Shown here in pieces: positions 5,828 to 24,349 of a stretch of 64,000 bases of DNA (position 1 is its first letter; each line of letters begins with the position of its first letter). Under the pieces are notes generated by a model, which was not told the DNA's origin, did not search any database, and worked only from the letters and a program-made list of their open reading frames with translations. The stretch lies in the NCBI GenBank assembly GCA_016721825.1, contig JADKHI010000002.1, positions 320,687-384,686 of the forward strand, given 5' to 3'. The position numbers and the translations under genes are program-made. Source of the stretch: Flavobacteriales bacterium (GTDB taxonomy: Bacteria > Bacteroidota > Bacteroidia > Flavobacteriales_F > PHOS-HE28).

Positions 5828-6868
5828 ATGGAGCCGGAACACATCCAACGCAAGAAACCGATGTACCCAGTGAGCGCGGCGCTGAACACCTACCTGGAAC
5901 AGCACTCGCGCAAGGTCAGCTTACCCATCGACTATACCGAGCTGCTGCGTTTCGATGGGCTGATCCCCAAATTGGATGACAACGGCAAGGAGACCTTGTG
6001 GAACACCGTGCTGCTGCGTCCCTCGGACCAGGAGGACCTCCACGCCCGGCTTGTTGAGGTGTACCAGCTGTTGATCGCCGACGGCCGTCCGATCGACTAC
6101 CTGAAGGTGGCGAGCATCGATTACTGCATCTACGGCAACAGCCAACCCTTCCGGATCAAGATCCTGAACCAGATCAACGACAACCACGACTACTACTACA
6201 TCAAGAAGGCCGACGCAAGCCGTGTCTATGGGCTGGAACTGGAACACCTGCTGAGCCCGAACCGCATCAACTACATGTACGGCGAAGGCACCTTGGTGGA
6301 GGAGCACATCATCGGGGTGCCAGGGGATGACTTCATTGCTGCGCCTCAGCACTTCGGGGGCAACCTGAACGCCGTACGCTTAAGCAAGGAGTTCGTGAAG
6401 TTCAACGAACGTTGCTTCGTGCGGCTGCTGGGCGACATGCGCGCTTACAACTTCGTGGTGGATGTGATCCAGGACTTCGACAAGGTGCAGTACCGTATCC
6501 GCAGCATCGACTTCGACCAACAGTGCTATGAGGGCAGGCACCGCATCTACCTGCCACAATTCTTCAAGGAGAACAAGCCTTATGTGGAGCTCGCCAGCAC
6601 CACGATCGGGCTGGAGACCGCACAGCAATACGCCAATGAGGAGCGAGCATTATTGCGGAAACGCTACCGTCTGTCGCAGGACCAACTGGATCAACTCTTC
6701 GATGTGATGCGCGGTGATACCATCAGCACTCCGGAACATGTGGCCTTGTTAGCGGCGGAGCTGGCCGAAGTACATGGACTTCCGGCCCTGCGTGAGTGTG
6801 GTACCATGGGCGAACTGCTTCACCAGCACCTGCGAGCGCGCCTGGAGCTGGATCGCGTCAGCGGCTGA
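5828..6868 (+). CDS. hypothetical protein with protein-kinase-like motif pattern
   Basis: YYYIKKAD (Lys), EEHIIGVPG (hinge-like), LGDMRAYNFVV (D-x4-N), IRSIDFDQ (DFG-like). Alternative starts are TTG 5801 (overlaps the GH18 stop) and ATG 5861. Confidence 0.55.
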   Translation: MEPEHIQRKKPMYPVSAALNTYLEQHSRKVSLPIDYTELLRFDGLIPKLDDNGKETLWNTVLLRPSDQEDLHARLVEVYQLLIADGRPIDYLKVASIDYCIYGNSQPFRIKILNQINDNHDYYYIKKADASRVYGLELEHLLSPNRINYMYGEGTLVEEHIIGVPGDDFIAAPQHFGGNLNAVRLSKEFVKFNERCFVRLLGDMRAYNFVVDVIQDFDKVQYRIRSIDFDQQCYEGRHRIYLPQFFKENKPYVELASTTIGLETAQQYANEERALLRKRYRLSQDQLDQLFDVMRGDTISTPEHVALLAAELAEVHGLPALRECGTMGELLHQHLRARLELDRVSG

Positions 6869-6952
6869 TCTCTGTTCACGAACTTTCGAAGGAACTGTGC
6901 GTTGAAGGCCCCGGGCCGCCGTGTCAACAACTCCCCGGATGGCCCGGACCGT

Positions 6953-7663
6953 ATGCGTGCGCTGATCTTCCTACTTGCTTGTTCGCCTTTGGCGCTGCTG
7001 GCCCAAAGCCTCGACTATCGCTGGCCCAACCAGCCCTGTGCCCAGGTGTTGAGCTGCGACACCGGATGCACGGCCTGTAACCTGCCCGATGGCAGCAGCG
7101 CAGTGTTGCTCGGCACCAACATGGGCGCAGTGGGCGTTGATGTGTGTCCGCACCCGGTGGAAGTGGGGGACAACGCCCTGTTCACCTTCGGCTGGCCCGC
7201 GATCGCGGACAACGACCACAAGCTGCTGATCTCCGGTTTGGCCTTTCAGCCATTGCATATTGACAGTGTGATCGTGTGGCACCGGGCAGGCAGCGACGGT
7301 CCCGAGAGGCTTCGCGTCAGCATCTCCATCAACAACGCCGCTCCCGTACTCGTCTCCGACTGCTACGTGGAAGCGACCTTCACAGAGGCCACCTTCACGG
7401 ATGTGGGTGTGGTGGCGATCTCGGAGGGCAATGTGAGCGGCATGTTCCAGCTCGAACTGCAAGCCTACCAAGGCGCCGGCGGAAGCTGGGATGTGGATGA
7501 AGTGCGGATCGTGACAACGCCAGCCACGTCGACCGGTATCTCGGAGCTCGGTGCTCCCCGGTACAGCAATGCCCCCCGCTACGACATGCTGGGTCGTCCG
7601 GCGCCACGCACCGATGCTGATGGCGTCTTCATCGACCGTTTCAAGAGGATACGGGTGCAGTAG
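6953..7663 (+). CDS. hypothetical secreted protein, Cys-rich N-terminus
   Basis: Signal peptide MRALIFLLACSPLALLAQ. CAQVLSCDTGCTACN cluster and a small EATFT-EATFT tandem duplication. Confidence 0.55.
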   Translation: MRALIFLLACSPLALLAQSLDYRWPNQPCAQVLSCDTGCTACNLPDGSSAVLLGTNMGAVGVDVCPHPVEVGDNALFTFGWPAIADNDHKLLISGLAFQPLHIDSVIVWHRAGSDGPERLRVSISINNAAPVLVSDCYVEATFTEATFTDVGVVAISEGNVSGMFQLELQAYQGAGGSWDVDEVRIVTTPATSTGISELGAPRYSNAPRYDMLGRPAPRTDADGVFIDRFKRIRVQ

Positions 7664-10202: not shown

Positions 10203-11657
10203 TCAGCGAGGTGTTTCGTAGAACTCCAGCGCGCGTTCCCCGCTCATGGTATTCACCTTCTGCGGGTCCACATTGTTCATGCTGTTGTTGCGCGAGTGGA
10301 GGATCTCGTTCCACCGGGAGTTCTGCACTTCGCCGGGCACTTCACTGTTGAGCAGTTCGTAGCAATCGCCCACCAGTTCGCGCTGGTAGAACACAAAGCG
10401 GCGGTTGGTGTACTTGCCGGCGCGGTAGTAGTGCCAGATCTGGTAGGGGTAGGCGTCCATCTCGTTCGCTCGGTCCATAATGGTGTTGGGCGCGCCGTAC
10501 TTCAGGTGCACATAGCCCCGGTCGGTGTCGAAGCCGCGGATGTTTCGGCAGCCGTAGAGCTTGTTCACCTTCACTACCTCGCGGGCGTAGCGTTCCCAAG
10601 CGGCCTGGGCATCAGGCCCGTTCTTGTTGTACCAGAAGGTGTACATGAAGCGCTTCATCAGCTCAATGTCCTTGTCCTTATACCGGTCGTCGATGATCTT
10701 CCGCTCCAAGTTGCTGGAAATGGGCCGCAGGCTGCGCAACGCGTCCGCCAACGTATCCGCATCGGTGAACACGTCGACGAACGTGTGCCCCAGTGGCGTA
10801 TCGTCCGTCAGGCTGAACTCGATGGGGTTGTTGCGCTGGATCATCTGCTCGCCCCGACCCAGCAGGGCGCCGTTGCGGTCGCGCGCTTCCATGGCGAGCA
10901 CATAGTTGCCGCTGGGCAGGGGGGCGATGTCGAACTGGGCCAGCACAGGGCTCACTTCAGCCGCCCGGATACGGGACACTTTCTTGTAGGCCCCGACCAC
11001 CTCGTGGTTCTCGTAGCTCTCCAACTGGTAGCTCAGCAGGTACATACTATCCCCTTTCAGCGCCAGCGGGGCGTTGTACACCTCCGCGTAGAAGGCCAAG
11101 CTTTTGACCTCAGAAGGGTAGTAGATGCTGGTGAAGGGAAGCACCTCGTAACCACTGCGGGACACCTTGGGGTCGGTGGACCTGTTCACTTGGGAAGCGA
11201 GGAGCACGTCGCTGAAGAACAAGCCTTCCGGTGTAGATCCGATCGGCAGGGGAAGGCGGATGCGCGAAGCGGTCGAATCACCGCTCACCAGGTCACGCAG
11301 CTCGATGGAAAGGCCGTGTTCACCGGGTTGCAGAAGAAAGCTCTCTTGGTGGATGAAGTCAGGATGCAAGCTGTCGGTGCGCTCGGGGCCGTTCACTACG
11401 GATTTTCGGAAGTCGGCGATGGCGCCATTCTTCTCGATGATGGTGATGGCCTCGATCCTGGCCTGTTGGAAGCCACGTTCATTGGCCCCCATGGTCACCG
11501 AGCCGCCGAGCATGGAGATGATCACGTCGACCCGTTCCCCTTGTCCCGGCACATGGAACACCTTGGTCTCCACGATGGCATCCGGCCCACCTTGGGCATG
11601 GAGCATGGACCCGAGCAAGAGCGCCGGGATCAGGGTTGGAAGGGTGCGCATCCTCAT
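10203..11657 (-). CDS. GWxTD domain-containing secreted protein
   Basis: Signal peptide ...LGSMLHAQ. C-terminal [17 protein letters not shown] matches the GWxTD signature with W replaced by F. Confidence 0.7.
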
Positions 11658-11761
11658 GAGCCAAAGATAACCCCGAAGCAGGGCGGGGCTGTCCCGTTGC
11701 CTGCGCGTGAATGGCCGTTCCTGACCAGCTAGCTACATTCGCGCCGCTTCCACGCACCAAA

Positions 11762-11849
11762 GGAGAGGTGGCAGAGTGGTCGATCGCGGCGGTCTTGAAA
11801 ACCGCTTTACCTACGGGTAACGGGGGTTCGAATCCCTCCCTCTCCGCCA
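11762..11849 (+). tRNA. tRNA-Ser: tRNA-Ser (anticodon UGA), encoded CCA
   Basis: Acceptor GGAGAGG/CCTCTCC; anticodon stem GCGGT/ACCGC with loop CTTGAAA; long variable arm TTACC-TACG-GGTAA; T-arm GGGGG-TTCGAAT-CCCTC; discriminator G then CCA. Confidence 0.9.
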
Positions 11850-12122: not shown

Positions 12123-12899
12123 ATGCGCCTCACTTTCCTCGGCTCCGGCACCAGTCAAGGAGTGCCAATCATCGGGTGCGACTGTGCTGTTTGCACGAGC
12201 CCTGATCCGCGCGATCAGCGGCTTCGGGTGAGCGTGCTGGTGGAGACCCAGGGCAAGCGGCTGTTGATCGATGCTGGTCCGGACATGCGCCAGCAACTGT
12301 TACGCGCCAAGGTGAAGGACCTGGATGCGGTGCTGATCACCCACGCGCACATGGACCACATCGGTGGCATGGACGACCTGCGGGCGATCAGCTTCCTGCA
12401 CGAACCGCCTCGCCCGGTGCCCATCTACGCCGATGCCGCGACCACGGACTCCGTGAAGCACATGTACCACTACGCCTTCGGACCGGGCAAGTACCCGGGC
12501 GTACCGGAGTTCGACATGCGGCTGATCACGCGGGACGCCTTCACGGTGGCCGGTATCGACGTGCTTCCGGTGGAAGTGATGCACATGCAGATGCCTGTGC
12601 TGGGTTTCCGGATCGGAGGACTGGCCTACATTACCGATGCGAAGTCCATCACCCCCAAGGAACGGGAGAAGCTCCATGGCTTGGACGTTCTGGTGCTGAA
12701 CGCGCTGCGCAAGGCGGAGCACTATTCCCACCTGAACCTCGACCAAGCGCTCGAACTGGTGCGTGAATTGAAGCCCCGCCAAGCTTACTTCACCCACATC
12801 AGCCATTGGATGGGGATGCACGCCGAGGTCCAAATGGAACTCCCCCCTAACGTTTTCCTGGCCTATGATGGGCTGGTGGTGGACATCCAAGAAGGGTAG
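12123..12899 (+). CDS. MBL-fold metallo-hydrolase (PhnP-like)
   Basis: HAHMDHIGG (HxHxDH) motif, about 258 aa. Confidence 0.75.
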   Translation: MRLTFLGSGTSQGVPIIGCDCAVCTSPDPRDQRLRVSVLVETQGKRLLIDAGPDMRQQLLRAKVKDLDAVLITHAHMDHIGGMDDLRAISFLHEPPRPVPIYADAATTDSVKHMYHYAFGPGKYPGVPEFDMRLITRDAFTVAGIDVLPVEVMHMQMPVLGFRIGGLAYITDAKSITPKEREKLHGLDVLVLNALRKAEHYSHLNLDQALELVRELKPRQAYFTHISHWMGMHAEVQMELPPNVFLAYDGLVVDIQEG

Positions 12900-12974: not shown

Positions 12975-15929
12975 ATGCGCTCCACCGTACTCTTCGCTTC
13001 CACCCTCACCTTCTGCGCGCTCTCCGCGCAGGCCCAGCGCGCCGTCCCAAGGGCGGAACGCCTGGAAGTGACCTTCATCAAGGATGCCCAACGACCACCG
13101 GACGATACTTGGCAGAGCACCTTGCGTGCCCGCTCCGCCTGGCGCCAGTTCGTAGCCGCGAACCCCTCCTGGACCGTGGAGTTCAACGAGGCCAACGGGC
13201 TTCCGCACCGCGCCTTTGGTCGACCGATCCCTTCAGCGGGGGCCACCCCGGCGGCTCAGGCCCAAGCCTTCCTTGCCGGACAGCTCGCTGCTTTCGGGCT
13301 GCCCTTGGATGAGCTTCAAGTGAAGCACGTATCGTCGACCACCAAGTACCACTTCGTGCATTTCAACCAGCTGCATCAAGGAGTGGAGGTGCTCTTCGGC
13401 CACGTGGTGGTGAAGCTGGACCAACAAGGGCGCGTGGTGCAGTTCGGACTGGACGCCTATCCGGGAATTGAGACCGCGATGTCGCCGATGATGGATGGCA
13501 CGACGGCCGGCAACGCGGCCACGACCGGACTATCCCAAGTGACCACGGTGGAACATCAAGGCATTCGCATTCTACCCCTGCCCGTGTGGCACGGCGTGGA
13601 GCATCGCCTCGTGCACGAGGTCACGGTGCGCACCTCGGAGGTCGGGCAACCTGGTCGCTGGCTGTGCTGGGTGGATGATGCGACAGGTGAATTGCTGTAC
13701 CGTCAGAACTTGATCATCAACCATGCACCGGACAAGGATGAGGACGTGGGCGCCGATATTCAAGTGAACAGCACTGTCTACACCTCGAATCAGCAGACGC
13801 CTTCCTCCGTGGAGGCCATGCCCGATGTTGACATCACCGTGGGTGGGCAACCCTTCACCGTGGATGGTGGTGGCTTCGTAGGTTCCGGTGTTTCCGGACC
13901 CACATCCTTCACCATGGAACTGTCCGGCACCTGGTCGCGAGTGGTACGTTTCGGTACCACTGCCACGGTCACCGGCACCTTACAGGACGGCCCGAACGTG
14001 GTCAGCTTTGACAATGTCGCCACGATCCAAGAGCGCAGCGCATACCGTTACGTCAGCATGGTACACAACCACGCCAAGGATGTGCTTCCCACGTTCACCG
14101 GCATGGACTTCCAGCTTCCCACGAACGTGGATGTGAGCGGGGGCACATGCAACGCTTTCTATGACGGGTCTTCCATCAACTTCTACGCGGAAGGCGGTGA
14201 CTGCTTCTCGATGGCCAACATCTCCGAAGTGGTGTGGCATGAATACGGCCACGGCATCAACGACAACTTCTACCAGGACAACGGTGGTTTCTTCCAGAAC
14301 GGAGGGATGGGAGAAGGCTACGCGGATTTCTGGGCGTTCAGCCTTTCGGAGGATCCGGTAATGGCAGCGGGCTATAACATGATCACGCCGAACGAGCCGA
14401 TCCGACGCTATGATGTGGACCGGAAGATCTATCCGGTGGACCTTACGGGTGAAGTGCACGCGGACGGTGAGATCATCGCAGGTGCGTGGTGGGACACGTA
14501 TCTGCTATTGGGCAACGACATGACCTTGACCGAGTCGCTTTTTGCCGAGGCTTATCCGGGGCTTCAGGCTTCGGTGCCGAACGGACAGGAAGGGCAGGCT
14601 TTCCGGGATGTGCTCCTGGACGTGCTTCAAGCGGACGATACCGATGGTGACCTGACGAATGGAACACCCAACGGGCTCGCCATCGTGGAAGGATTCGCTT
14701 TGCACGGCATCACGCTGATCAGTGGTTTCGACCTGTTGCACACCCCTCTAGCGGACCAGAACGAGAACACGGGCATCACGATCACCGCACAATCCACGGT
14801 CACGTTCCCGTATACCCAGTATATGGACGGCGTGCAGTTGAACTACCGGATCAATACAGGCACTTGGGTCTCCACGGTGATGACCAACACCGGCGGAAGC
14901 AACTATTCAGCTACCATTCCCGGCCAACCGGAAGGCACCGTGATCGCCTACTACTTGGGCATGCTCGATCTCAACCAGGAGCTGAGCGGCGTGCAGCCCA
15001 TCGGTGCAGCGGAGCCAGACCCCAACGTACCCTATTACATCCTGGTAGGCTTCGCGCTGGAGGGCACAGAGGACCTTGACTTCAACAGCCAGGTCGGTAA
15101 CTGGACCCCAGGACAGCCGGGTGACAACAACACCACCGGTACTTGGGAGATCGCGATCCCGATCGCCTCATTGAGCACCGTGGACAACAGCGAGATCCAA
15201 CCGGGCGACCAGCATACACCAGGCGGCGAACTTTGTTTCGTGACCGGCAACTCCACCAACACCACCTCACCAGGCGATAACGATGTGGATGGCGGACGCA
15301 CGACCTTGCAGAGCGGGCCGATCGATCTGTCGTCCTATGTGAACCCCACCTTCACCTACTTCCGCTGGTACACGAACAGCCCTCCCGGTGGCGCGAACCC
15401 AGGTGCGGACTGGTGGCAGGTGCAGATCACCAACGATAACCAGAACTGGATCCCGGTGGAGAACACGATGAGCAGCGACCGCAGCTGGCGTCGAGTGGCC
15501 TTCCGCGTGCAGGATTACGTGACCCCGAACGCCACGGTACGCATCCGCATGGTCGCTTCGGATAGCACCCGTGCAGGCCAGTACCTCGATGGCGGAAGCT
15601 TGATCGAAGCGGCCGTGGATGATATCCAGCTGTGGGATAACAACGGCAACATCGGCATCGGAGAGGCCGCTACGATCTCCTTTACCTCGGTCCACCCGAA
15701 CCCGGCGAACGATGTATTGAACGTGTCCATTGCGCTGAAAGGAGCGAAGGGCTTGCGTTGGCAGGTGATCGACGCGAGCGGTCGCCTTGCCATGGACCGC
15801 TTTGTGGGTGACCGTAGCGGCGAGGTACGTGATCGCTTGGATGTGAGCGCCTTGGCCGAAGGTGCCTATGTCCTCCGTGCCACTTGGACCGGCGGCAGCG
15901 CCGAGCAACGCTTCACGGTCGTGCGCTGA
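12975..15929 (+). CDS. secreted zinc metalloprotease (M36/fungalysin-like) with T9SS C-terminal sorting domain
   Basis: Signal peptide; VVWHEYGHGIND (HExxH) followed by GMGEGYADFWA; C-terminal VHPNPANDVLNVSI...YVLRATW...FTVVR, a T9SS CTD-like pattern. Confidence 0.8.
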   Translation: MRSTVLFASTLTFCALSAQAQRAVPRAERLEVTFIKDAQRPPDDTWQSTLRARSAWRQFVAANPSWTVEFNEANGLPHRAFGRPIPSAGATPAAQAQAFLAGQLAAFGLPLDELQVKHVSSTTKYHFVHFNQLHQGVEVLFGHVVVKLDQQGRVVQFGLDAYPGIETAMSPMMDGTTAGNAATTGLSQVTTVEHQGIRILPLPVWHGVEHRLVHEVTVRTSEVGQPGRWLCWVDDATGELLYRQNLIINHAPDKDEDVGADIQVNSTVYTSNQQTPSSVEAMPDVDITVGGQPFTVDGGGFVGSGVSGPTSFTMELSGTWSRVVRFGTTATVTGTLQDGPNVVSFDNVATIQERSAYRYVSMVHNHAKDVLPTFTGMDFQLPTNVDVSGGTCNAFYDGSSINFYAEGGDCFSMANISEVVWHEYGHGINDNFYQDNGGFFQNGGMGEGYADFWAFSLSEDPVMAAGYNMITPNEPIRRYDVDRKIYPVDLTGEVHADGEIIAGAWWDTYLLLGNDMTLTESLFAEAYPGLQASVPNGQEGQAFRDVLLDVLQADDTDGDLTNGTPNGLAIVEGFALHGITLISGFDLLHTPLADQNENTGITITAQSTVTFPYTQYMDGVQLNYRINTGTWVSTVMTNTGGSNYSATIPGQPEGTVIAYYLGMLDLNQELSGVQPIGAAEPDPNVPYYILVGFALEGTEDLDFNSQVGNWTPGQPGDNNTTGTWEIAIPIASLSTVDNSEIQPGDQHTPGGELCFVTGNSTNTTSPGDNDVDGGRTTLQSGPIDLSSYVNPTFTYFRWYTNSPPGGANPGADWWQVQITNDNQNWIPVENTMSSDRSWRRVAFRVQDYVTPNATVRIRMVASDSTRAGQYLDGGSLIEAAVDDIQLWDNNGNIGIGEAATISFTSVHPNPANDVLNVSIALKGAKGLRWQVIDASGRLAMDRFVGDRSGEVRDRLDVSALAEGAYVLRATWTGGSAEQRFTVVR

Positions 15930-15949
15930 TCAGCATCTCTGTTCATGGC

Positions 15950-15980
15950 GAAGGCCCTTCGGATCTTCCGGAGGGCTTTC
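15950..15980. terminator. bidirectional hairpin between convergent genes
   Basis: 14-bp stem (two G-U wobbles) GAAGGCCCTTCGGA-tct-TCCGGAGGGCTTTC, between the stops at 15929 (+) and 16001 (-). Confidence 0.5.
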
Positions 15981-16000
15981 GTCGTTCAGAGATAAGGTCA

Positions 16001-16687
16001 TCATCTAGCGAGGGACCGCTTCAAGCTCTCACGCACAAGGAGCGCAAGGTCTTTGGGGAACTTGCCATTCACGAGATGGCCCTGGTTCACCTCCAGTTCG
16101 ATGCCTGCGTAGTGTGTGGGGTGCAGCTTGCGCAGGTAGGTAGGCAAGCCGTCCGCCTTGCCGAGATACGGTCGATTCATCCGAACCTCAACGGTCGGGT
16201 CGATGGCCAGCATCGTGTCGCGCCAACGTAGGGCCCATTGCTTCTCGATCCTTCGGGACGGGTCGTAGAGCAAGCCGATGTCGAGCGTACGCACTTCACT
16301 GTTCAAGACCGGGGTGAAGGAGTGCACAGCCACATGCATCACCGTTTCGCGCTTGGTCGCCCACTTCGCGACCTGCTCTTCGACAGCGGCGCGGTAGGGT
16401 AGGTAGTAGCGCCCTAGCAGCGTCTTCCGTTCCGTCAATGGCAATGGCTTCGTGTAGCGGGAGAAGAGGGCAGGATGATGAGGAGAGCGGTTCAATTCCA
16501 CAAGCAGGCGGCTGGTGGTGCTGTGGAAGTGCGCGTCGGCATCCGCCTTCAGCCGTTCGAACAGGCCCAAGGCCCCGGGGTCCCAGCCGCGATGGCTGTG
16601 CAAGACCGCATCAGCATCCTTGAACAAGGGGCGGTAGATGGTCGGCACCTTGTTCCCGCCATGCTCACAGGTCAGCAACAACTTCAT
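16001..16687 (-). CDS. N-formylglutamate amidohydrolase (FGase) family protein
   Basis: CEHGGNKVP, HRGWDPGA, VELNR and VHSFTP motifs. The ATG at 16687 overlaps the upstream stop (ATGA). The track's longer N-terminus is an out-of-context extension. Confidence 0.75.
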   Translation of the reverse strand: MKLLLTCEHGGNKVPTIYRPLFKDADAVLHSHRGWDPGALGLFERLKADADAHFHSTTSRLLVELNRSPHHPALFSRYTKPLPLTERKTLLGRYYLPYRAAVEEQVAKWATKRETVMHVAVHSFTPVLNSEVRTLDIGLLYDPSRRIEKQWALRWRDTMLAIDPTVEVRMNRPYLGKADGLPTYLRKLHPTHYAGIELEVNQGHLVNGKFPKDLALLVRESLKRSLAR

Positions 16688-17919
16688 TCGAAGGGGCGGT
16701 CGTCCTGTAGGCAGGTGGCCAGCTCCGTGTAGACCTCGATGATCCTCTCGCGAGAAGGTTCCTTGCCTGTGCGCGCGAGAATGCGGGAGGCCAGGCAGCC
16801 GTGTTGAAGGATGTGGCTGATGCCGCGCTGGGCGTTCTCGCTCAGCTCGCTGCGTAGCTCGTTGAACAGGTGTTCCCAGAGCTTGCCAGCCGTCATGCGG
16901 TCCTCCTTCAGCACACCGAACATGATCAGGAACTCCTTGTTGGAGATCACCGACTTGCCCGCATCCTTGATCACTTGCAGGAAGATGGGCAGCAGGTCGG
17001 TCTCGCTCCAGGCACGCTGCAGGTAATTGCTCACCCAACGGCCCTTCACCATGGCGCGGCAGACGGCCACGATCAGCTCGGCGATGGCCAGGTCCATCGA
17101 GGGGCACTCCTGAATGTCGATGACGCGGATCTCAATGGCGCCCCGGTCGAAGCGTGCGATGGCGCCGCGCGAGTTCGCGAAGTGGTGGTCCATCACATGT
17201 TCGGTGTCGAACGGCGCGAGCGCTTGCGCGATGGGGCTGAAGATGGCGCGGTAATAATCCTCCTGGCTGAACACGGCCTCGGGGATCAAGGATCCCATCA
17301 GCTCGGGCAGCTTCTCCTGGTGGTGCAAGTAGGCCTCCATGCGGCCGTCGAGGAAACCGGTGGTCTTGCCGTCAAGGAGGGGGGAGCTGGCGCTGAGCGC
17401 GGGGATGATGGGCAGCACCATGCGGATGGCTGCGTGCAGCTTGCCGAACTCCTCATCGTTGGCAAAGGGAAGGTTGAGGTGTGTGCTCTGCAGATTGCTC
17501 CAGCCATGGCCGCGGCAATCGAAGATGCGGTTGTACAAGGCGTATACCTCGTTGTAGTCGTGCGGCCAGATCACGGTCTCGGTGAAGGGATCCATGAAAG
17601 GGTGTGCGGCCGTGGGCAGCAGCATGCGCCCCCGCTTGGCCAACTGGGCGTTGATGGCCTTCACCTCACTGGCGAACTTCTTCTGGAAGGAGGGGATCTT
17701 GCGGGTGGGCTTGGCGGTCTTCAGTTCCACCACGTGGCTCACCAGCTCGTTGCTCCATTCCACATCCCCGCGTTCCACATCACCGGTGATCGCGCCGGTA
17801 ACGTCCTTGAAAAGTTCATCCACCGTGGGGCTGACCTGCAGGGTCTCTCGGTCAACCACCATGTACTCCAGTTCGATGCCAGTGACCTCGAACAGCTTGA
17901 ATTTCTTCGGGGCGCTCAT
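16684..17919 (-). CDS. carboxylate-amine ligase, glutamate-cysteine ligase family 2 (GCS2/YbdK-like)
   Basis: GIELEYMVVD and SHVVELKT motifs. The ATG at 17919 overlaps the upstream stop (ATGA). Confidence 0.75.
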   Translation of the reverse strand: MSAPKKFKLFEVTGIELEYMVVDRETLQVSPTVDELFKDVTGAITGDVERGDVEWSNELVSHVVELKTAKPTRKIPSFQKKFASEVKAINAQLAKRGRMLLPTAAHPFMDPFTETVIWPHDYNEVYALYNRIFDCRGHGWSNLQSTHLNLPFANDEEFGKLHAAIRMVLPIIPALSASSPLLDGKTTGFLDGRMEAYLHHQEKLPELMGSLIPEAVFSQEDYYRAIFSPIAQALAPFDTEHVMDHHFANSRGAIARFDRGAIEIRVIDIQECPSMDLAIAELIVAVCRAMVKGRWVSNYLQRAWSETDLLPIFLQVIKDAGKSVISNKEFLIMFGVLKEDRMTAGKLWEHLFNELRSELSENAQRGISHILQHGCLASRILARTGKEPSRERIIEVYTELATCLQDDRPFE

Positions 17920-19415
17920 GCCTTGATGCTCGTTTTGCCCATGGTGGGCGTGATGCCGATGCGGCGCTCGATGGTGCGCTTCATCGATCCAATGATCTTT
18001 CGGTACAGTTCGTCGCCCAGGGCCACATCCTCCACGCCGTGGTCGATGTTCGGGCATTCGTTCACTTCGATCACATAGGGTTTGCCGGCCACCTCCTTGA
18101 TGTCCACGCCGAAGAGACCCTGATCACCGACGATGGCTTTCACAGCATGCACGGCCGCATCGATGATCTCCTTCGCACACTCATGCACATGCATCGTGGC
18201 GAAGTCGCCGCTCTGGTGCTTCTTGGTGTCGCTGCCCCAGTTGTAGATCTGCCAGTGGCCACGCGCCATGAAGTACTTGCAGGCGTATAAAGGCTCACCG
18301 TCCAACACGCCGATACGCCAGTCGAAGTCGCTGGGCATGTATTCCTGTGCGATCACCAGATCGCTCTCATCGAGCAGCTCATCCAGCTTCAGCACCAGCT
18401 CTTCGGGGGTCTTGGCCTTGGTGACACCGCGGCTGAAGGTGCTGTCGGGCAGCTTCAGCACCACCGGCAATCCGAAGCGTTCGGCCACCTCATGTCGGTT
18501 CTCGCTGTGTACGATCATGGTGCGGGGGCTGGGCACCGCGTTGGCCTCCATCACCTCGGCGAGGTAGACCTTATTGTTGCACTTCAGGATCGCGTCCGGT
18601 GCGTCCATCACGGCCAGCCCTTCCTTCTGGGCTTTGCGCGCGAAGCGGTAGGTGTGGTCGTTCACGTGCGTGTTCTCCCGGATCAGCAGGGCATCGTACT
18701 GGCCAAGCCGATCAATGTCGTTCGGACCGATGATATCGACAGCGAAGCCCATCTGCTCGGCGGCCTGCCGGAACTTCACGATCGCGCGCTTGTTGCTCGG
18801 GGCTGCCTTGTCCTCGGGGTTCACCAAGATCGCCAGATCGTACTGGCTACGGTCCTCGCGGGCCTTGTCGTAGCGTTTCTTGGCGAAGTACTCCTTGGCG
18901 AAGTGCCGCACATGGGGGAGGTGGTCCTCGGGGATCTCGTTGTAGGGAATGGCCCGCATGCCGCGCAGCTCCCACTTCTCACCCTTCACAAAGCGGGCGC
19001 GAAGGAGCGGCGCTTGGAAAACCTTGTAGAGCTCGTGCGCCAGACGGTCGTACTTGCGGTTCACGTTGCGCCCGAAGTAGATGCTGAAGATGAACTCGTC
19101 CTTGACCTTCTCGCTGAGGCTTTGTTGGATCACTTCGTCAAGGTCGCGTGACAGCACCTTCACCAAGCTCGGGTTCTTCAGATCGAGGATGGTCTTGGCA
19201 TCGGGGATCACCTTCTGCCCACGCGCTTCGGCCAGGAGGCTCACATAGTAACCGCGGCTCTGGTAACTATAGCTGCGCGCGAGGTTGAAGATGCGCACGT
19301 TGGAGATCGCAGCGTATACGGGATCGGTCAAGTAGTCCTTGCTGGACACCACTTCCACCCCCTTCACGCCCAGGTTGAAGGTGCTCGGGTCTCGGACCAC
19401 GATGATCTTTCTCAT
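17916..19415 (-). CDS. RimK-type ATP-grasp ligase with about 200-aa N-terminal extra domain
   Basis: C-terminal half resembles RimK (VVLKLPDSTFSRGV..., VIAQEYM, VIEVNECPN). N-terminal MRKIIVVRDP...SYSYQSRGYYVSLLAEARG domain. The ATG at 19415 overlaps the upstream stop. Confidence 0.75.
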   Translation of the reverse strand: MRKIIVVRDPSTFNLGVKGVEVVSSKDYLTDPVYAAISNVRIFNLARSYSYQSRGYYVSLLAEARGQKVIPDAKTILDLKNPSLVKVLSRDLDEVIQQSLSEKVKDEFIFSIYFGRNVNRKYDRLAHELYKVFQAPLLRARFVKGEKWELRGMRAIPYNEIPEDHLPHVRHFAKEYFAKKRYDKAREDRSQYDLAILVNPEDKAAPSNKRAIVKFRQAAEQMGFAVDIIGPNDIDRLGQYDALLIRENTHVNDHTYRFARKAQKEGLAVMDAPDAILKCNNKVYLAEVMEANAVPSPRTMIVHSENRHEVAERFGLPVVLKLPDSTFSRGVTKAKTPEELVLKLDELLDESDLVIAQEYMPSDFDWRIGVLDGEPLYACKYFMARGHWQIYNWGSDTKKHQSGDFATMHVHECAKEIIDAAVHAVKAIVGDQGLFGVDIKEVAGKPYVIEVNECPNIDHGVEDVALGDELYRKIIGSMKRTIERRIGITPTMGKTSIKA

Positions 19416-20119
19416 GCAGGGAGCGGCTTCTTGGAAAGGATGAGCAGGTTGGCGTCGTAGGTCACGATGCCCAGCAGAATGGAGTTGATCAAGCGGCCCA
19501 CTGGCACTTGGTAGTAGCGATCGTCGCCCAGGGGATTGTCCTGATAGGGGTCGGCAACAAGCACCTTCTTGCCTTCCATACCGCAGAGCACAACGAAGTG
19601 GCCCATGGGCTTGCCGCGCAGGTCGTCGAACACGCTCTGTCCATTGCTACCAGAGTATTCGCGCTTGCTCTTGTACAGGTAGGTGGCGCTGAGTCCGGTG
19701 AGGACCGGCAGGTCGTGATCGAAGTAGCGCTGAAGCAACGAAGGCCGCGGGTCGTCGAAGCGGACCTCGCCGCCCATCTTAAGGAACCGGGCATAGGCCA
19801 GGCAAGCGGAGTGCAGCTTCTTTCCTTCCTTGAAGCGGGTCTGCGCAACGAGCTTCTTACGGAGCATCTCGCTCGAAAGGCCTTCCCAACTGGGATCGAA
19901 CACGCGCAGGTTGTAACTGTGGATGCGGGCGTGGAAGCCATGCTTCAAGGCATGAAGACCGAGGAACACGGCCAGCGTGCCGCCATCTTCCAAATGGTGC
20001 ACCTCACCGATCACCTCGTCGAGACCGACGTCGAGTCCGAAGTACTGGTATACCGCGTGCAGCGCGGTGGGGCCGCAGGTACTGTCGTCCGGTTGGGCGA
20101 GGATCCGAATAGCGCGCAT
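19412..20119 (-). CDS. papain-fold / C39-like cysteine peptidase
   Basis: QPDDSTCGPTAL (Cys), MGHFVVL (His) and LVADP (Asp) in the order expected for C39-like peptidases. ATG at 20119; the track start at 20125 is TTG. Confidence 0.6.
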   Translation of the reverse strand: MRAIRILAQPDDSTCGPTALHAVYQYFGLDVGLDEVIGEVHHLEDGGTLAVFLGLHALKHGFHARIHSYNLRVFDPSWEGLSSEMLRKKLVAQTRFKEGKKLHSACLAYARFLKMGGEVRFDDPRPSLLQRYFDHDLPVLTGLSATYLYKSKREYSGSNGQSVFDDLRGKPMGHFVVLCGMEGKKVLVADPYQDNPLGDDRYYQVPVGRLINSILLGIVTYDANLLILSKKPLPA

Positions 20120-20208
20120 GACCAAGGCTCAAAGGTGGCACGGTGACAGGGGCTGGGAACGTTCGTCCAGCGCGCGGCATCCACGGATCGATGTGGACAG
20201 CGGAACCT

Positions 20209-21174
20209 TCAGATACCCGGGTTCAGCGGGCTGGTGGGGGTGGCGCCAGGAAGCCAATTGCCGCGCGGGCGGAAAAGGCGGGGTAGCTCCCGTTCGGCAT
20301 CGAACCACAGCAGGTTGTCCGGGTTCAGGCTGCTGCGAAGGAGGAAACGGGCATCCCGGGTCGCGAAGATGGAGACCACGATCGGCGCAGGACGGGTAAC
20401 GTCCGTTATGGTCAGCGTGGCCACTTCAGGCAGGCTGTCCAAGCTGGCACCTTTGGCTGCGGAATGGGCTTCGCTACGCGCCAGGCTGCGCAGGTAATCG
20501 GCCACACGAGCTGTATCGGAAAGGACGCTGTCGAGCATCCAGATACCATTGGAGCGCTGAAGCACGTAGTCGTTCCCCGGGAAGCGATAGTGCAGGTAGC
20601 TCCAGTTCTTCGGATCGCCGATGACCACAGTGCGCGGGCGCCAATCCTCCACCTTCATTTCGGTGACCATGCTGAGCTTTCCATCCACGGCGAAGACCTC
20701 GCGCTCACCCGGCACGTTCACGTGCGACCACGGGCCTTTCGGGCTGAAGGTGCTTTTGCCGATCAATAGCTCCTGCTTGGAACCGTCATTCAGCTCAATG
20801 ATCATGCGGTCGGCCAGCGTGTCGTTCAGGTCGTAGCGGTCTTTCACCAGGTCCATGGTGCCGACCTGCCGCTTCACACGCATGTCAGCGAGCGGTGCCA
20901 GCACGTCCAGCACGTACTTGTTGTCCACGCGTAACGTATCTGCCTTGGAGTAGAGGCGCCACAGCCCACCCTCGCGCACCACGCGTACATCCGGCCGCAA
21001 TGTGCCTCCGGGTTCGATCACGATCGCTTTCACCTCAGCCGTATCCAAGGTCAGCACCACCTCGCGGTACGTACGGTCCTTGGACCGCATGCCGTAGCGG
21101 TCCCCGATGAACCAGAGCAGGGCCAGTGCGACCACCACGATCACCAAGGCCTTGGTACGCGCGTTACTGGACAT
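20209..21174 (-). CDS. membrane-anchored protein, DUF4340-like
   Basis: N-terminal TM anchor ALVIVVVALALLWFI. Sits immediately after a GldG-like gene with an 11-nt overlap. Confidence 0.5.
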   Translation of the reverse strand: MSSNARTKALVIVVVALALLWFIGDRYGMRSKDRTYREVVLTLDTAEVKAIVIEPGGTLRPDVRVVREGGLWRLYSKADTLRVDNKYVLDVLAPLADMRVKRQVGTMDLVKDRYDLNDTLADRMIIELNDGSKQELLIGKSTFSPKGPWSHVNVPGEREVFAVDGKLSMVTEMKVEDWRPRTVVIGDPKNWSYLHYRFPGNDYVLQRSNGIWMLDSVLSDTARVADYLRSLARSEAHSAAKGASLDSLPEVATLTITDVTRPAPIVVSIFATRDARFLLRSSLNPDNLLWFDAERELPRLFRPRGNWLPGATPTSPLNPGI

Positions 21175-22690
21175 GGCCTGGGTGCATTCGTTGATCGCGT
21201 TGCTTCTTTCTCCAACGCAGCCGGAAGGCTCCATAACCCAGCACCAGCACCACCGGAAGCAGAAGCATCGACCACTTGATCAGGGCACGTTCGCCATCCG
21301 ACACTTCGTCGAGCGGCCTGTATCCGATGCCTTTGTTGCGCAGTTCGATGAGCCCTGTGCGGTCCGTGGTCCAATCCACCGCGTTCACCAGCAGGTTCAC
21401 ATTGTCCGGCTCGATCTGCATGGGCTGTTGTCCATTGCCGTTCAGCACGAAGCCGCCGTTGCCGACCACCACCATCCGCGAAGGGTGCCCGTTGGTCAGT
21501 TGACCTTCCAGCGCGGCGCCGACCGTCTGCGGGCCGAGCAGGAAGTCCATGTCGTTCCACTGCTTCTGGATGTCGATGACCTGTGGGGCAGGCAGTGAAT
21601 TGCTTCGCTTGCTGGTGAACAACAGTGGTGTCCACTTCACACGGCTGCTATCACCGGTGAAGGACAGTGGTGAGGTGAACTGGAACACCACCGCATCAAG
21701 GCCGCTGGAAACCGGATGTGGGCTGTAGCCGGAAATGATCGGGAAGTAGGGGAACATCACCGGTACCGGCATGGTGAACTGGCCTCGCTGTTGCAGCACC
21801 TGTACCTGTCCGCAGTTCGCGTCGATCAACACCCGCGGCTCCAAGCCTACGCCTCGTTGGGCAAGCCAATCGGCAAGATCGGGGCGGCGCAAGCTGATCA
21901 TGTTCGATGTGTTCACATCCGTGCTCAGGTTGGAAGAGGCCACCACGAGACCCCGTCCCTTGGCCATGAAGGCTTCGAGCTGTTTCAGTTGGAGCGCCGG
22001 AATGGAGTCCTTCGGATCGATCCAGATCAAGGCGCTGAATCGGTCGTGGATGGGGAAGCTGTCGTAGATGGCCATGGGTTCCACGGCATACAGGACGCTC
22101 AGTGCTTGTTCCAGTTGGGGCATGTTGCCCATGGCAGGTTCGCCGTGCCCCTGGATCAACCCGATGGCGGGCTTGTCCACAATACTCACGCGCTTCATGG
22201 CCGAACTCAGCTCCCACTCCAACGAACTGCCCGGCTGAAGCACAGGGATGATGGCCGTCTGCTCGCCCATCTGTACCACCGCGCCCATATACACTTTGAG
22301 CTGTTCGGCCTTGTCCTTTTCGCGCGTGTTCACGAGCACCCACCGCACCCCGCTCTCTGTCGCCTGTTTCTCCAAGCTGTCGGCGGTGTTCGGATCCACG
22401 AAGGCGAAGACAACGTTGCCTTTGCTGCGCTCGGCGTATTCCACCAACAGGTCCTTCAGGTCCTGCCGCACCATGGCCAGGTCGGGGGGAAGGTCTTCGG
22501 TGAAGTAGGCCGTCACCGTCACCGCCTCGGGCAGTGAATCCAGCATCTCGATGGTGGCTGCGCTAAGGGTGTAGCGTCCGTCGCCGGTGAGGTCCTTACG
22601 CACATGGTAGCGATGCCCGAGCAGGTTCACCAGCACGAGCGCCAGCAGCACAAGCACCACGTTGCGGAGGGAGCGGGCGCGCAGGCTCAT
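21164..22690 (-). CDS. GldG-like ABC-transporter auxiliary protein
   Basis: N-terminal TM segment plus DLTGDGRYTLSAATIEMLDSL pattern, and a C-terminal TM segment. ATGA overlap with the permease gene. Confidence 0.65.
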   Translation of the reverse strand: MSLRARSLRNVVLVLLALVLVNLLGHRYHVRKDLTGDGRYTLSAATIEMLDSLPEAVTVTAYFTEDLPPDLAMVRQDLKDLLVEYAERSKGNVVFAFVDPNTADSLEKQATESGVRWVLVNTREKDKAEQLKVYMGAVVQMGEQTAIIPVLQPGSSLEWELSSAMKRVSIVDKPAIGLIQGHGEPAMGNMPQLEQALSVLYAVEPMAIYDSFPIHDRFSALIWIDPKDSIPALQLKQLEAFMAKGRGLVVASSNLSTDVNTSNMISLRRPDLADWLAQRGVGLEPRVLIDANCGQVQVLQQRGQFTMPVPVMFPYFPIISGYSPHPVSSGLDAVVFQFTSPLSFTGDSSRVKWTPLLFTSKRSNSLPAPQVIDIQKQWNDMDFLLGPQTVGAALEGQLTNGHPSRMVVVGNGGFVLNGNGQQPMQIEPDNVNLLVNAVDWTTDRTGLIELRNKGIGYRPLDEVSDGERALIKWSMLLLPVVLVLGYGAFRLRWRKKQRDQRMHPGHVQ

Positions 22691-23424
22691 GACCGATCGA
22701 ACATGCGTTTGGCCAGGTTGCGTTCCGCCAGCACCAGCGCGAACACGATCACGCTGGCGAAGTACACGAGGTCGCGGCTGTCCACAACACCCCGGCTCAT
22801 GCTATCGAAATGCTCCGCAGTGCTCAGGAACTGGAAGAAAACGCCGAGCGGCCCAGTGAAGTTGGAGCTGAGCACCATGGCCAGCACATGGAACACCACG
22901 ATGACGAGCATGCCCACGAGAAAGGCCTCGATCTGGTTGCGGGAAAGGCTGCTCGCATAGATGCCAATGGCCACGTAACCAGCGCTCATGCACAGGAGTC
23001 CGAAGTATCCGCACCACACAGCACCGTGGTCCATGGAGCCCATGCTCGCGATGGCGAAGTAGTAGGGTAGGGTGAAGGCCAGTGCAAATACGATCAATAG
23101 CAGGCAGGCCAGGAATTTTCCACCCACGACCTGCCCGTCGGAAACATCTTTGGTCAACAACAGGTCGAGCGTTCCGGATCGACGCTCTTCCGCCAGCGTT
23201 CGCATGGTGAGCGCCGGGATGAAGAGGAAGAGGGTCCAATAGGCGGTCTGGAAGAAGGCGGAAAGGTCGGCCTGTTTTCGCATGAACACGTCCGGGTACC
23301 AGGCGCCGTACCACCAGGTGAAAAAGCCCCAGCTGCCCAGGAGGACCACCAGCAGGATGTAGGCCATGGGACCATCGAAGAAGGAGGCCAGTTCGCGCCG
23401 GGCGATGATCCAGGTCTTCCGCAT
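22687..23424 (-). CDS. ABC-2 type transporter permease (GldF-like)
   Basis: MRKTWIIARRELASFFDGPMAY start, six hydrophobic segments, 245 aa. Confidence 0.7.
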   Translation of the reverse strand: MRKTWIIARRELASFFDGPMAYILLVVLLGSWGFFTWWYGAWYPDVFMRKQADLSAFFQTAYWTLFLFIPALTMRTLAEERRSGTLDLLLTKDVSDGQVVGGKFLACLLLIVFALAFTLPYYFAIASMGSMDHGAVWCGYFGLLCMSAGYVAIGIYASSLSRNQIEAFLVGMLVIVVFHVLAMVLSSNFTGPLGVFFQFLSTAEHFDSMSRGVVDSRDLVYFASVIVFALVLAERNLAKRMFDRS

Positions 23425-23425
23425 C

Positions 23426-24349
23426 TCAGTCCAGGGTCAGTTCGCGGAACACATCCTCCAGTCGCGTTTCCACCTGGTGCAGGCCGGTAAGGATCCAGCG
23501 GCGCTGCACGCAGAGCTGGAAGATGGTGCGCTCCAGTTGCATACCCGGGGCCACACGCAGCAGATAGCCGTTGGCACCATCGGCAGTGACCTCTTCGACC
23601 TGTTCGATCGATCGGAACGCATCGAGCACTTCCTGCTGAACAGCTTCTTCGATCCGGACATTCAGCATCGCACGTCCTTGGGCCTTGCCACGCAGCTCCG
23701 CAGGACCTCCATCGGCCACGATACGGCCCTTGTCGATGATGAGGATCCGGTCACAGGTGGCCTCGACCTCAGGAAGGATGTGCGTGCTGAAGATCACCGT
23801 CTTGGCTTGTCCAAGCTCTTTGATCAGCTCACGGATCTCCACGATCTGGTTGGGGTCGAGACCGGTGGTAGGCTCGTCGAGGATGAGGACGTCCGGGTCG
23901 TGCACCATGGCCTGCGCCAGCCCTACGCGTTGCCGGTAGCCTTTGCTGAGCTCGCCAACGCGCTTGTGTTTCTCCCGGTCAAGGCAACAGGCTTCCACCA
24001 TGGTGCGCAGGCGCTCATCGATGCGGTCGGCGGGCACGGCCTGTAGCTTGGCAGCGAACCGCAGCAGGTCCAGCACCGGCATGTCCTCGTAGAGCGGATT
24101 GCTTTCGGGCAGGTAGCCGATCATGCGGCGTACCACTTCGGGTTCCGTGGCGACATCATGTCCCCCGACGGTGATCTTACCTGCGTTCGGCGCAGTGAGC
24201 CCACAGATGAGCTTCATGGTGGTGGACTTGCCCGCACCGTTGGGCCCGAGAAAGCCGAGCACTTCGCCCGCGCGCACCGTGAAGCTGATCCCGTCAACGG
24301 CCTTCTGTGGGCCGTAGCGCTTGGTCAGGTCTTCGATGCGGATGTCCAT
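23426..24349 (-). CDS. ABC transporter ATP-binding protein
   Basis: Walker A GPNGAGKST, signature LSKGYRQR, Walker B LILDEPTTGLD. Confidence 0.9.
   Translation of the reverse strand: MDIRIEDLTKRYGPQKAVDGISFTVRAGEVLGFLGPNGAGKSTTMKLICGLTAPNAGKITVGGHDVATEPEVVRRMIGYLPESNPLYEDMPVLDLLRFAAKLQAVPADRIDERLRTMVEACCLDREKHKRVGELSKGYRQRVGLAQAMVHDPDVLILDEPTTGLDPNQIVEIRELIKELGQAKTVIFSTHILPEVEATCDRILIIDKGRIVADGGPAELRGKAQGRAMLNVRIEEAVQQEVLDAFRSIEQVEEVTADGANGYLLRVAPGMQLERTIFQLCVQRRWILTGLHQVETRLEDVFRELTLD

Follow-up and report, generated by a model that had tools for sequence, protein, structure and literature searches.

A conserved pair of RLAN-ATP-grasp and GCS2 ligases with two accessory hydrolases in a Flavobacteriales operon, a candidate system for ribosome-independent synthesis of a small glutamate-containing peptide

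A four-gene operon is described here from a 64,000-nucleotide (nt) stretch of DNA of a Flavobacteriales bacterium (hereafter the window), at positions 16001–20119. It encodes a C39-like cysteine peptidase, a RimK-clade ATP-grasp ligase with an N-terminal RLAN domain, a GCS2-family carboxylate-amine ligase and an amidohydrolase of the N-formylglutamate amidohydrolase (FGase) family. Comparison with related loci showed that the ATP-grasp and GCS2 ligases are the conserved core of the module and that the C39-like and FGase-like hydrolases are accessories. Of the functions considered, the one placed first, and held tentatively, is that the module assembles, independently of the ribosome, a small peptide containing glutamate and also recycles it.

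All four genes lie on the minus strand and form one translationally coupled operon. In the order of transcription they encode the C39-like peptidase (235 amino acids (aa); 19412–20119, with its ATG at 20119), the RLAN-ATP-grasp ligase (499 aa; 17916–19415), the GCS2-family, gamma-glutamyl-type ligase (411 aa; 16684–17919) and the FGase-like amidohydrolase (228 aa; 16001–16687). The stop and start codons of successive genes overlap as ATGA at 19412–19415, 17916–17919 and 16684–16687, and both the open reading frame (ORF) list and the sequence place the genes and their junctions exactly where the original prediction, made by reading the DNA without database searches, had put them. The 89-nt gap upstream of the operon (20120–20208) was likewise as predicted, the neighbouring gene ending with its stop at 20209. 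For the C39-like ORF, an alignment of homologues favoured the ATG at 20119 over a TTG at 20125. The motifs on which the family calls had been based were all found in the proteins, and Pfam backed each call (Peptidase_C39, RLAN with ATP-grasp/RimK, GCS2 and FGase). The catalytic residues examined in the four proteins were conserved, none being missing in the alignments. Long ORFs of up to 402 aa also run antisense to the four genes within 16000–20150, including one at 16870–18078 on the plus strand; these are typical shadow ORFs of a genome with 61% GC, and some of them cluster as “conserved” because they overlap conserved genes.

The conservation of the module was analyzed in 82 loci (51–96% identity), obtained by a profile scan of one genome per GTDB species and completed with two further contigs; this sample is skewed to the best-scoring relatives and holds many near-duplicates from metagenome-assembled genomes of Flavobacteriales. 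The complete arrangement, C39-like, ATP-grasp, GCS2 and FGase, was found in 37 loci, and in 3 more the FGase gene lay a few kb off. The first three genes alone were present in 18 loci, the last three in 8, the two ligase genes in 9 and the ATP-grasp gene by itself in 2, the remaining 5 loci being truncated by a contig end. Gene order showed no variation across the 82 loci and was found in at least five phyla, with carriers in Bacteroidota, Rhodothermales, Fibrobacter, Gammaproteobacteria and Uhrbacteria of the Candidate Phyla Radiation (CPR). All four genes occurred in Flavobacteriales, Chitinophagales, Cytophagales (Nafulsella, Imperialibacter, Rufibacter), Marinilabiliaceae, Fibrobacter intestinalis and Thioalkalivibrio, three of them in Rhodothermales and two in CPR Uhrbacteria. 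The overlaps of −4 nt recurred at 49 of 59 junctions between the C39-like and ATP-grasp genes, 38 of 77 between ATP-grasp and GCS2 and 26 of 48 between GCS2 and FGase. Since the same order is found across phyla and the overlaps are themselves conserved, the arrangement is not due to chance, and the conserved overlaps imply co-expression. The module is thus widespread, and it is horizontally spread. Cultured carriers include Fibrobacter intestinalis ATCC 43854, Nafulsella turpanensis, Imperialibacter, Rufibacter glacialis, Winogradskyella and Legionella adelaidensis.

The division into core and accessories follows from the gene counts, the ATP-grasp and GCS2 genes being adjacent in 80 of 82 loci whereas a C39-like gene was present in 60 of 81 testable loci and an FGase gene in 48 of 76. 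The unit of four genes that had been predicted therefore stands as a set of neighbours co-conserved in a fixed order, but it is not obligate, each of the hydrolase genes missing in a quarter to a third of the loci. In loci lacking the C39-like gene no replacement peptidase was found, as the upstream genes were unrelated or without a Pfam match and gave less than 1% probability in hhalign comparisons with the C39-like profile; on these grounds, non-orthologous replacement of the peptidase was rejected.

Some individual loci departed from the general picture. Records labelled Oscillospiraceae, Alistipes onderdonkii and Sodaliphilus sp. (L050, L058 and L059) carry a module matching those of Fibrobacter in coordinates and in identity to the query, pointing to wrongly binned contigs of Fibrobacter or to a transfer in the very recent past. 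The FGase gene of one locus (L005, 10780–11443) and the ATP-grasp gene of another (L068, 8001–9446) were each split into two adjacent BLAST pieces and may represent frameshifts, pseudogenes or assembly errors. In three Fibrobacter spp. loci (L052, L054, L057) the linkage was looser, with an FGase homologue about 4–5 kb downstream of GCS2. In the CPR Uhrbacteria locus (L060) the ligase pair precedes an Fe/Mn superoxide dismutase gene (10611–11246) that overlaps the stop of GCS2, a gene for a J-domain protein (11332–11826) comes next, and a further Fibrobacter locus (L047) has a full DnaJ gene (6101–7237) two genes upstream of the module; these neighbours could reflect a redox or proteostasis link, or coincidence.

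The ATP-grasp ligase begins with an additional N-terminal domain that had been tentatively suggested in the original prediction and that Pfam identified as RLAN (PF14401; 1.7e-45, 154.8 bits against a cutoff of 25). This alpha/beta domain covers residues 26–168 (18912–19340, minus strand), contains the invariant motif YQS[KR]GYYVSLLAEARG and is followed by Pfam matches to ATP-grasp_3, RimK and Dala_Dala_lig_C. The architecture, RLAN N-terminal to a RimK-like ATP-grasp, was common to the homologues found, which number at least 8000 clusters at 90% identity, and the RLAN domain itself has 729 representatives at 50% clustering. A profile of RLAN alone gave no relative in the PDB at E≤10, and the Foldseek matches of the full-length model covered the grasp module without RLAN. 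That module, complete with three subdomains, spans residues ~190–490 (17946–18848, minus strand) of the modelled protein. Its structural relatives were RimK (5zk6, 4iwx, 7qyr) and LysX/ArgX (5k2m, 3vpb), with template modelling (TM) scores to the target of 0.78–0.81 and root-mean-square deviations of 3.3–3.9, and of 0.78–0.80 in TM score for the RimK structures alone. Using a published list of RimK residues (PMC10092738), the HMMER alignment equated K141, E178, R189, D248, E260, N262 and R64 of RimK with K321, E358, R367, D438, E450, N452 and R246 of the window protein, respectively. The ATP/Mg ligands among these (K321, E358, R367, D438, E450 and N452), along with R246, were invariant among the homologues. 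By fold and by ATP/Mg ligands the protein thus belongs with RimK, yet it did not reach the family or equivalog thresholds for RimK (65.4 against 143.4 bits for rimK_fam TIGR00768; 25.5 against 331 bits for NF007764).

Compared with the RimK/RimB system, the window ligase has in common the RimK-clade fold and the equivalent ATP/Mg and acyl-phosphate residues, and both ligases are genetically coupled to a protease, which in the known system is RimB, a partner that binds RimK and adjusts poly-Glu chain length (PMC10092738). The window ligase differs from RimK in its extra RLAN domain of ~185 aa, its remodelled substrate loop and the loss, judged by eye, of distal poly-Glu contacts. Its protease is of the papain/C39 fold rather than the RimB type, and the operon adds GCS2 and FGase partners without a known target. 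No rpsF was present among the window ORFs examined, only part of the ORFs being annotated.

The second core enzyme was assigned to the GCS2 family by Pfam (4.6e-26, 92.3 bits against a cutoff of 21). It carries the GhExE signature defined for the superfamily (PMC2588565) as an invariant G14-I-E16-L-E18, and E16, E18, H62, E65, H147, E263 and R265 were invariant among its homologues. The Pfam domain, the signature and the conserved His, Glu and Arg residues of the glutamine-synthetase fold thus all place it in the GCS2/YbdK group. Equivalog identity to glutamate--cysteine ligase (GCL) or YbdK was not supported, with a best score of 64.2 against 176.4 bits and GCL models at ≤46 against 332–437 bits. 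The sole relative of the GCS2 profile in the PDB was YbdK (1r8g, E 0.0066).

The FGase-like protein matched Pfam FGase at 2e-21 (77.6 bits against a cutoff of 28.9), and C7 and the putative active-site set (E8, H9, H32, D36, R60, N66, R67, H118, H122, E197 and E199) were invariant among homologues. Fold and putative active site are therefore those of the family to which HutG belongs. Orthology to HutG was not supported, as no NCBIfam family matched at E≤0.01 and the flanking ORFs that were annotated included no hut genes. In the PDB, the FGase profile matched Atu2144 (2odf) at 2.9e-28, with which the window protein shares the FGase fold and the CEH, SHxxxDxGA, NR and HSFTP motifs, whereas the match to the HutG-like 2q7s was marginal (0.006). 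Atu2144 is itself uncharacterized.

Similarity of the C39-like peptidase to Pfam Peptidase_C39 was lower (1.2e-7, 32.1 bits against a cutoff of 22; C39_2 at 2.8e-6), and no NCBIfam model matched it. Within its family, DUF3335 was matched by 20 of 21 members and a GUCD1-like model by 13 of 21. The Gln/Cys/His/Asp catalytic set (Q9, C15, H174 and D190) was invariant in the 21 sequences, down to 58% identity, as were the family-specific motifs GLSATYLY, R153/E154 and TYDAN. In a Foldseek search of the PDB, the AlphaFold2 model (predicted local distance difference test score of 86.7) aligned best with the PCAT1, ComA and LahT peptidase domains (E 5e-5, TM to target ~0.7). The 235-aa protein therefore has the papain-like C39 fold and, with the Gln of the oxyanion hole, the catalytic tetrad of these exporter domains. 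It differs from them in standing alone without a transporter fusion, with a putative cytoplasmic location, in a helical insert of ~90 aa (about residues 76–165) between the Cys and His halves and in its affinity to DUF3335 and GUCD1-like proteins. Nor did it show the hallmark of an N-terminal ABC-exporter domain acting on double-glycine leaders, there being no conserved double-glycine precursor ORF nearby and the neighbouring ABC-2/GldG system being of another type. A phytochelatin-synthase-like identity was also considered for this peptidase and rejected, both Foldseek and Pfam indicating C39/DUF3335.

More distant relatives of the ATP-grasp ligase show which partners it keeps. In Legionella adelaidensis (43% identity) the GCS2 and FGase genes were retained beside it, whereas in Pseudomonas aeruginosa, Azospirillum, Tistrella and Aeromonas (30–40% identity) the RLAN-ATP-grasp gene was alone. 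A further clade of >5000 clusters consists of proteins of ~645–650 aa in which a GNAT domain is fused to the N- or C-terminus of RLAN-ATP-grasp, with carriers in Acholeplasmataceae, Clostridia, Bacteroidales, Maribellus and Izemoplasmataceae; in three genomes (Maribellus, Acholeplasmataceae and Clostridia) the fusion gene had no GCS2, FGase or C39-like neighbour. As the same RLAN-ATP-grasp is either fused to a GNAT or translationally coupled to a GCS2 ligase, the two look like interchangeable amine-capping partners, N-acetyl and N-gamma-glutamyl, respectively, acting with RLAN-ATP-grasp on a small substrate. Identity of the fusions with Ngg was rejected, as they matched no Ngg model at E≤1e-5, and the window ligase did not match the curated Ngg/GNAT-ATP-grasp model either.

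The stand-alone gene of P. aeruginosa (L083, NZ_CP133752.1; 40% identity), annotated as “RimK family alpha-L-glutamate ligase”, occurs in addition to a canonical rimK. It lies between a short-chain dehydrogenase/reductase gene and a pyridoxal-phosphate aminotransferase gene and near pagP, a Glu/Asp ABC transporter and ggt, in a record labelled as a plasmid whose content looks chromosomal. In Francisella, deletion of the “rimK” gene FTT0178 (490 aa), a possible RLAN homologue, did not cause attenuation.

In general, RimK-clade enzymes add the amino group of glutamate to a carboxylate, GCS2 and GCL enzymes activate the gamma-carboxylate of glutamate, and FGase hydrolyses N-formylglutamate to glutamate. 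In the pathway proposed here, the GCS2 enzyme would use ATP to activate the glutamate gamma-carboxylate and join it to an amine, giving an N-gamma-glutamyl-capped amino acid. The RimK-clade ligase would then, again with ATP, activate the free carboxylate of this intermediate and add one or a few L-Glu residues, giving a small cytoplasmic peptide. The FGase-type enzyme would hydrolyse the N-acyl-Glu bond and so undo the ATP-grasp step, and the C39-like thiol peptidase would cut the cap or the chain and might in addition bind the ligase and adjust its activity, like RimB with RimK, both hydrolases being optional accessories for turnover or editing. By analogy, this would be the logic of glutathione synthesis (GshA and GshB), of N-acetyl-Asp-Glu (NAAG) synthesis by NAT8L and RIMKLA, and of N-acetylglutaminylglutamine amide (NAGGN) synthesis by Ngg, in each of which a capping COOH-NH2 ligase or GNAT is paired with an ATP-grasp of the RimK/GshB clade, as here. 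The window proteins differ from these pathways in failing all the equivalog models and in the additional RLAN domain and two dedicated hydrolases.

A small N-capped peptide is favoured over a protein tag because RLAN-ATP-grasp is elsewhere GNAT-fused and stand-alone. The C39-like relatives lend further support, since the papain-like cluster containing DUF3335 was reported to be often GNAT-fused in a 2023 classification (PMC10318531). More generally, ATP-grasp and COOH-NH2 ligases that are linked typically carry out one ligation after the other in peptide metabolites (Burroughs et al. 2015).

Several observations weigh against such a small peptide. No product, substrate or phenotype is on record, and which of the two ligases acts first is conjecture. 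Substrates are not transferable from known enzymes, as both ligases score far below every curated NCBIfam equivalog cutoff, and the ATP-grasp loop at residues 384–403 is remodelled relative to RimK, with its own invariant H387, W388, Q389, N392, W393 and G403. The stand-alone RLAN-ATP-grasp genes indicate that this enzyme is not strictly dependent on a GCS2 product. The nearest structural relatives of the grasp module, RimK and LysX/ArgX, all act on a protein C-terminus, the RLAN domain could serve in target recognition, C39 peptidases normally cut polypeptides, and the 53–60% cross-phylum identity of the C39-like and ATP-grasp proteins would also suit a conserved macromolecular target.

The last four points fit a reversible, ribosome-independent tagging of proteins, which we consider unlikely but the next to be weighed. 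Here an RLAN-guided ATP-grasp would extend the C-terminus of a target encoded elsewhere with a Glu tail, as RimK does on ribosomal protein S6 and LysX/ArgX on LysW, the GCS2 enzyme would make an isopeptide through the gamma-carboxylate of the tail, as PafA does, and the C39-like and FGase-like enzymes would erase the tag in the manner of RimB and Dop. The poly-Glu-contacting residues R64, R189 and N262 of RimK are indeed kept, as R246, R367 and N452, and the physical interaction of RimB with RimK parallels the tight coupling of the C39-like and ATP-grasp genes. PafA, moreover, descends from GCS2 (PMC2588565). The pupylation system of PafA and Dop likewise pairs a GCS2-derived ligase acting on a Glu gamma-carboxylate with a reversing hydrolase; it differs from the window operon, which has no Pup-like ORF, hydrolases of unrelated folds and a GCS2 proper rather than a PafA/Dop-type enzyme. 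The fused GNAT domains were closest to RimI, a ribosomal-protein acetylase, but the score was below threshold and such likeness is generic for GNATs. Against tagging, no candidate target or tag gene was conserved near the module, and a conserved acidic C-terminus, the type of acceptor used by RimK and LysX, was found in none of the four proteins, so that the operon proteins were rejected as their own substrate. The distal poly-Glu contacts S7 and R8 of RimK are seemingly not kept (V198 and N199, mapped by eye), the remodelled loop at 384–403 counts against tagging as well, and FGase-family enzymes are known solely on small N-acyl amino acids.

A storage polymer resembling cyanophycin appears improbable. 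In this case the ATP-grasp enzyme would make alpha-poly-Glu, the GCS2 enzyme would decorate its gamma-carboxylates with an amino acid, the C39-like peptidase would depolymerise it and the FGase-like enzyme would split the units, mirroring CphA1, cyanophycinase and isoaspartyl dipeptidase. A set of two ligases and two hydrolases is also what cyanophycin metabolism uses, RimK is able to make poly-alpha-Glu in vitro, and some genomes do without the hydrolases or encode them elsewhere, as is the case for cphB. The weak NCBIfam and PDB matches of the ATP-grasp protein to the G domain of cyanophycin synthetase, however, reflect only a generic ATP-grasp signal, direct evidence is lacking, and to our knowledge no such polymer is reported in the carrier lineages. 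The GNAT-fused, stand-alone relatives better fit a capped small peptide.

It is very improbable that the operon is a chance neighbourhood of housekeeping genes, with GshA and GshB for glutathione synthesis, HutG of histidine degradation and a stray peptidase, as database names would have it (“glutamate--cysteine ligase” and “N-formylglutamate amidohydrolase” in GenBank; “glutathione synthase/RimK-type ligase” for the ATP-grasp in JGI). The equivalog models of GCL, GshB and YbdK were all far under their cutoffs (e.g. 46 against 332, 21.7 against 272 and 64 against 176 bits, respectively), GshB has no RLAN domain, the amidohydrolase had neither a HutG model match nor hut genes among the annotated flanking ORFs, and the order and overlaps conserved across phyla indicate one functional unit.

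Scarcely tenable is a cluster for a ribosomally synthesized and post-translationally modified peptide of the graspetide/microviridin type, in which the ATP-grasp enzyme would macrocyclise a ribosomal precursor and the C39-like peptidase, which does have the C39 fold, would remove its leader: although in such clusters RimK-like ATP-grasp ligases occur together with GNATs and C39 peptidase domains, no small ORF (18–110 aa, within 1.2 kb of the module) was conserved beyond closely related genomes, in line with the lack of a precursor noted in the original prediction, the 89-nt upstream gap is too short for a precursor gene, the peptidase has no ABC-exporter fusion and the adjacent ABC-2/GldG transporter is lineage-specific synteny, GCS2 and FGase play no role in graspetide pathways, and no microviridin-type ATP-grasp model was among the NCBIfam matches.

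The four proteins are not new as sequences. Identical proteins of the same lengths are already in GenBank as consecutive entries (MBL0035665.1–MBL0035668.1), named “peptidase-C39 like family protein”, “RimK family protein”, “glutamate--cysteine ligase” and “N-formylglutamate amidohydrolase”, and the RLAN family was already in Pfam, so that the novelty attributed to the system at the outset was overstated. Systems combining ATP-grasp, COOH-NH2 ligase and peptidase genes were reportedly predicted in silico, on computational grounds alone, by Iyer, Abhiman, Burroughs and Aravind in 2009 (Mol Biosyst 5:1636), possibly with this exact four-gene order, and the RLAN family of Pfam reportedly originates from the same study. 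The window operon shares with those systems the protein families and the type of contextual linkage. The full-text literature on combinations of RLAN, RimK, GCS2, FGase and C39/DUF3335 yielded no experimental characterization of the module, the other mentions being transcriptome lists; the earlier statement that the four-gene combination had no biochemical characterization thus held, and no homologous cluster assigned to a defined published pathway was found there. Later papers cite Iyer et al. 2009 for linked ATP-grasp and COOH-NH2 ligase operons and for GNAT-linked DUF3335 papain-like peptidases. The window operon is a further member of this in silico-defined, biochemically unexplored kind rather than a new category.

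The module is common across distant phyla, including the genome-reduced CPR bacteria, and its enzymology is clearly intact as judged from conserved residues. Thousands of genes whose present names (“glutamate--cysteine ligase”, “RimK family protein” or “N-formylglutamate amidohydrolase”) are probably wrong would gain a function if its product were identified. Such work could also uncover a new metabolite similar to glutathione or NAAG, in phyla for which little is known of small-peptide metabolism, or, with lower probability, a new kind of protein modification in bacteria; tagging, if true, would be comparable to pupylation or the tubulin code and would operate in Bacteroidota, Fibrobacterota, Proteobacteria and CPR bacteria. 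With two to four soluble enzymes the system is small and so directly testable.

The surroundings of the operon were also inspected. Outside close Flavobacteriales relatives no other gene family co-occurred near the module, and none of the four proteins matched a PADLOC defence-system model. A sigma-70 scan called no promoter in the 89-nt gap, the consensus used not being of the Bacteroidota type, so that the promoters of this host fall outside the scan. Downstream, a GC-rich hairpin lies at about 15949–15981, between the convergent FGase and type IX secretion system (T9SS) protease genes. Its predicted folding free energy of −26.4 kcal/mol (z = −5.4, with 0 of 200 shuffles folding as well) bears out the hairpin that had been read from the sequence. 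It lacks a U tract and was not called by a consensus terminator scan, and it is likely a bidirectional terminator.

In close Flavobacteriales, a GldA/F/G-like ABC system, a DUF4340 gene and a T9SS metalloprotease gene are found nearby as simple synteny. In the window, the first two correspond to a GldA/GldF/GldG-like ABC-2 set (ABC_tran, ABC2_membrane and ABC_transp_aux with DUF7088) and a DUF4340 protein encoded directly upstream of the operon on the same strand (20209–24349, minus strand), and both are conserved beside the operon solely in close relatives. The convergent gene (12975–15929, plus strand) encodes a secreted protein of 984 aa that has a fungalysin/thermolysin propeptide, weakly matches M36/M4 metalloproteases and ends in a T9SS sorting domain. 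In 19 loci of close Flavobacteriales relatives this gene lies downstream of the module as well, which reflects lineage synteny and does not make it part of the module. Further along, a metallo-beta-lactamase-fold gene (12123–12899, plus strand; Lactamase_B_2, 2.5e-40), the product of which matched the anti-Pycsar Apyc1 model below threshold (22 bits, the cutoff being 50), is found near the module in about 11 close relatives.

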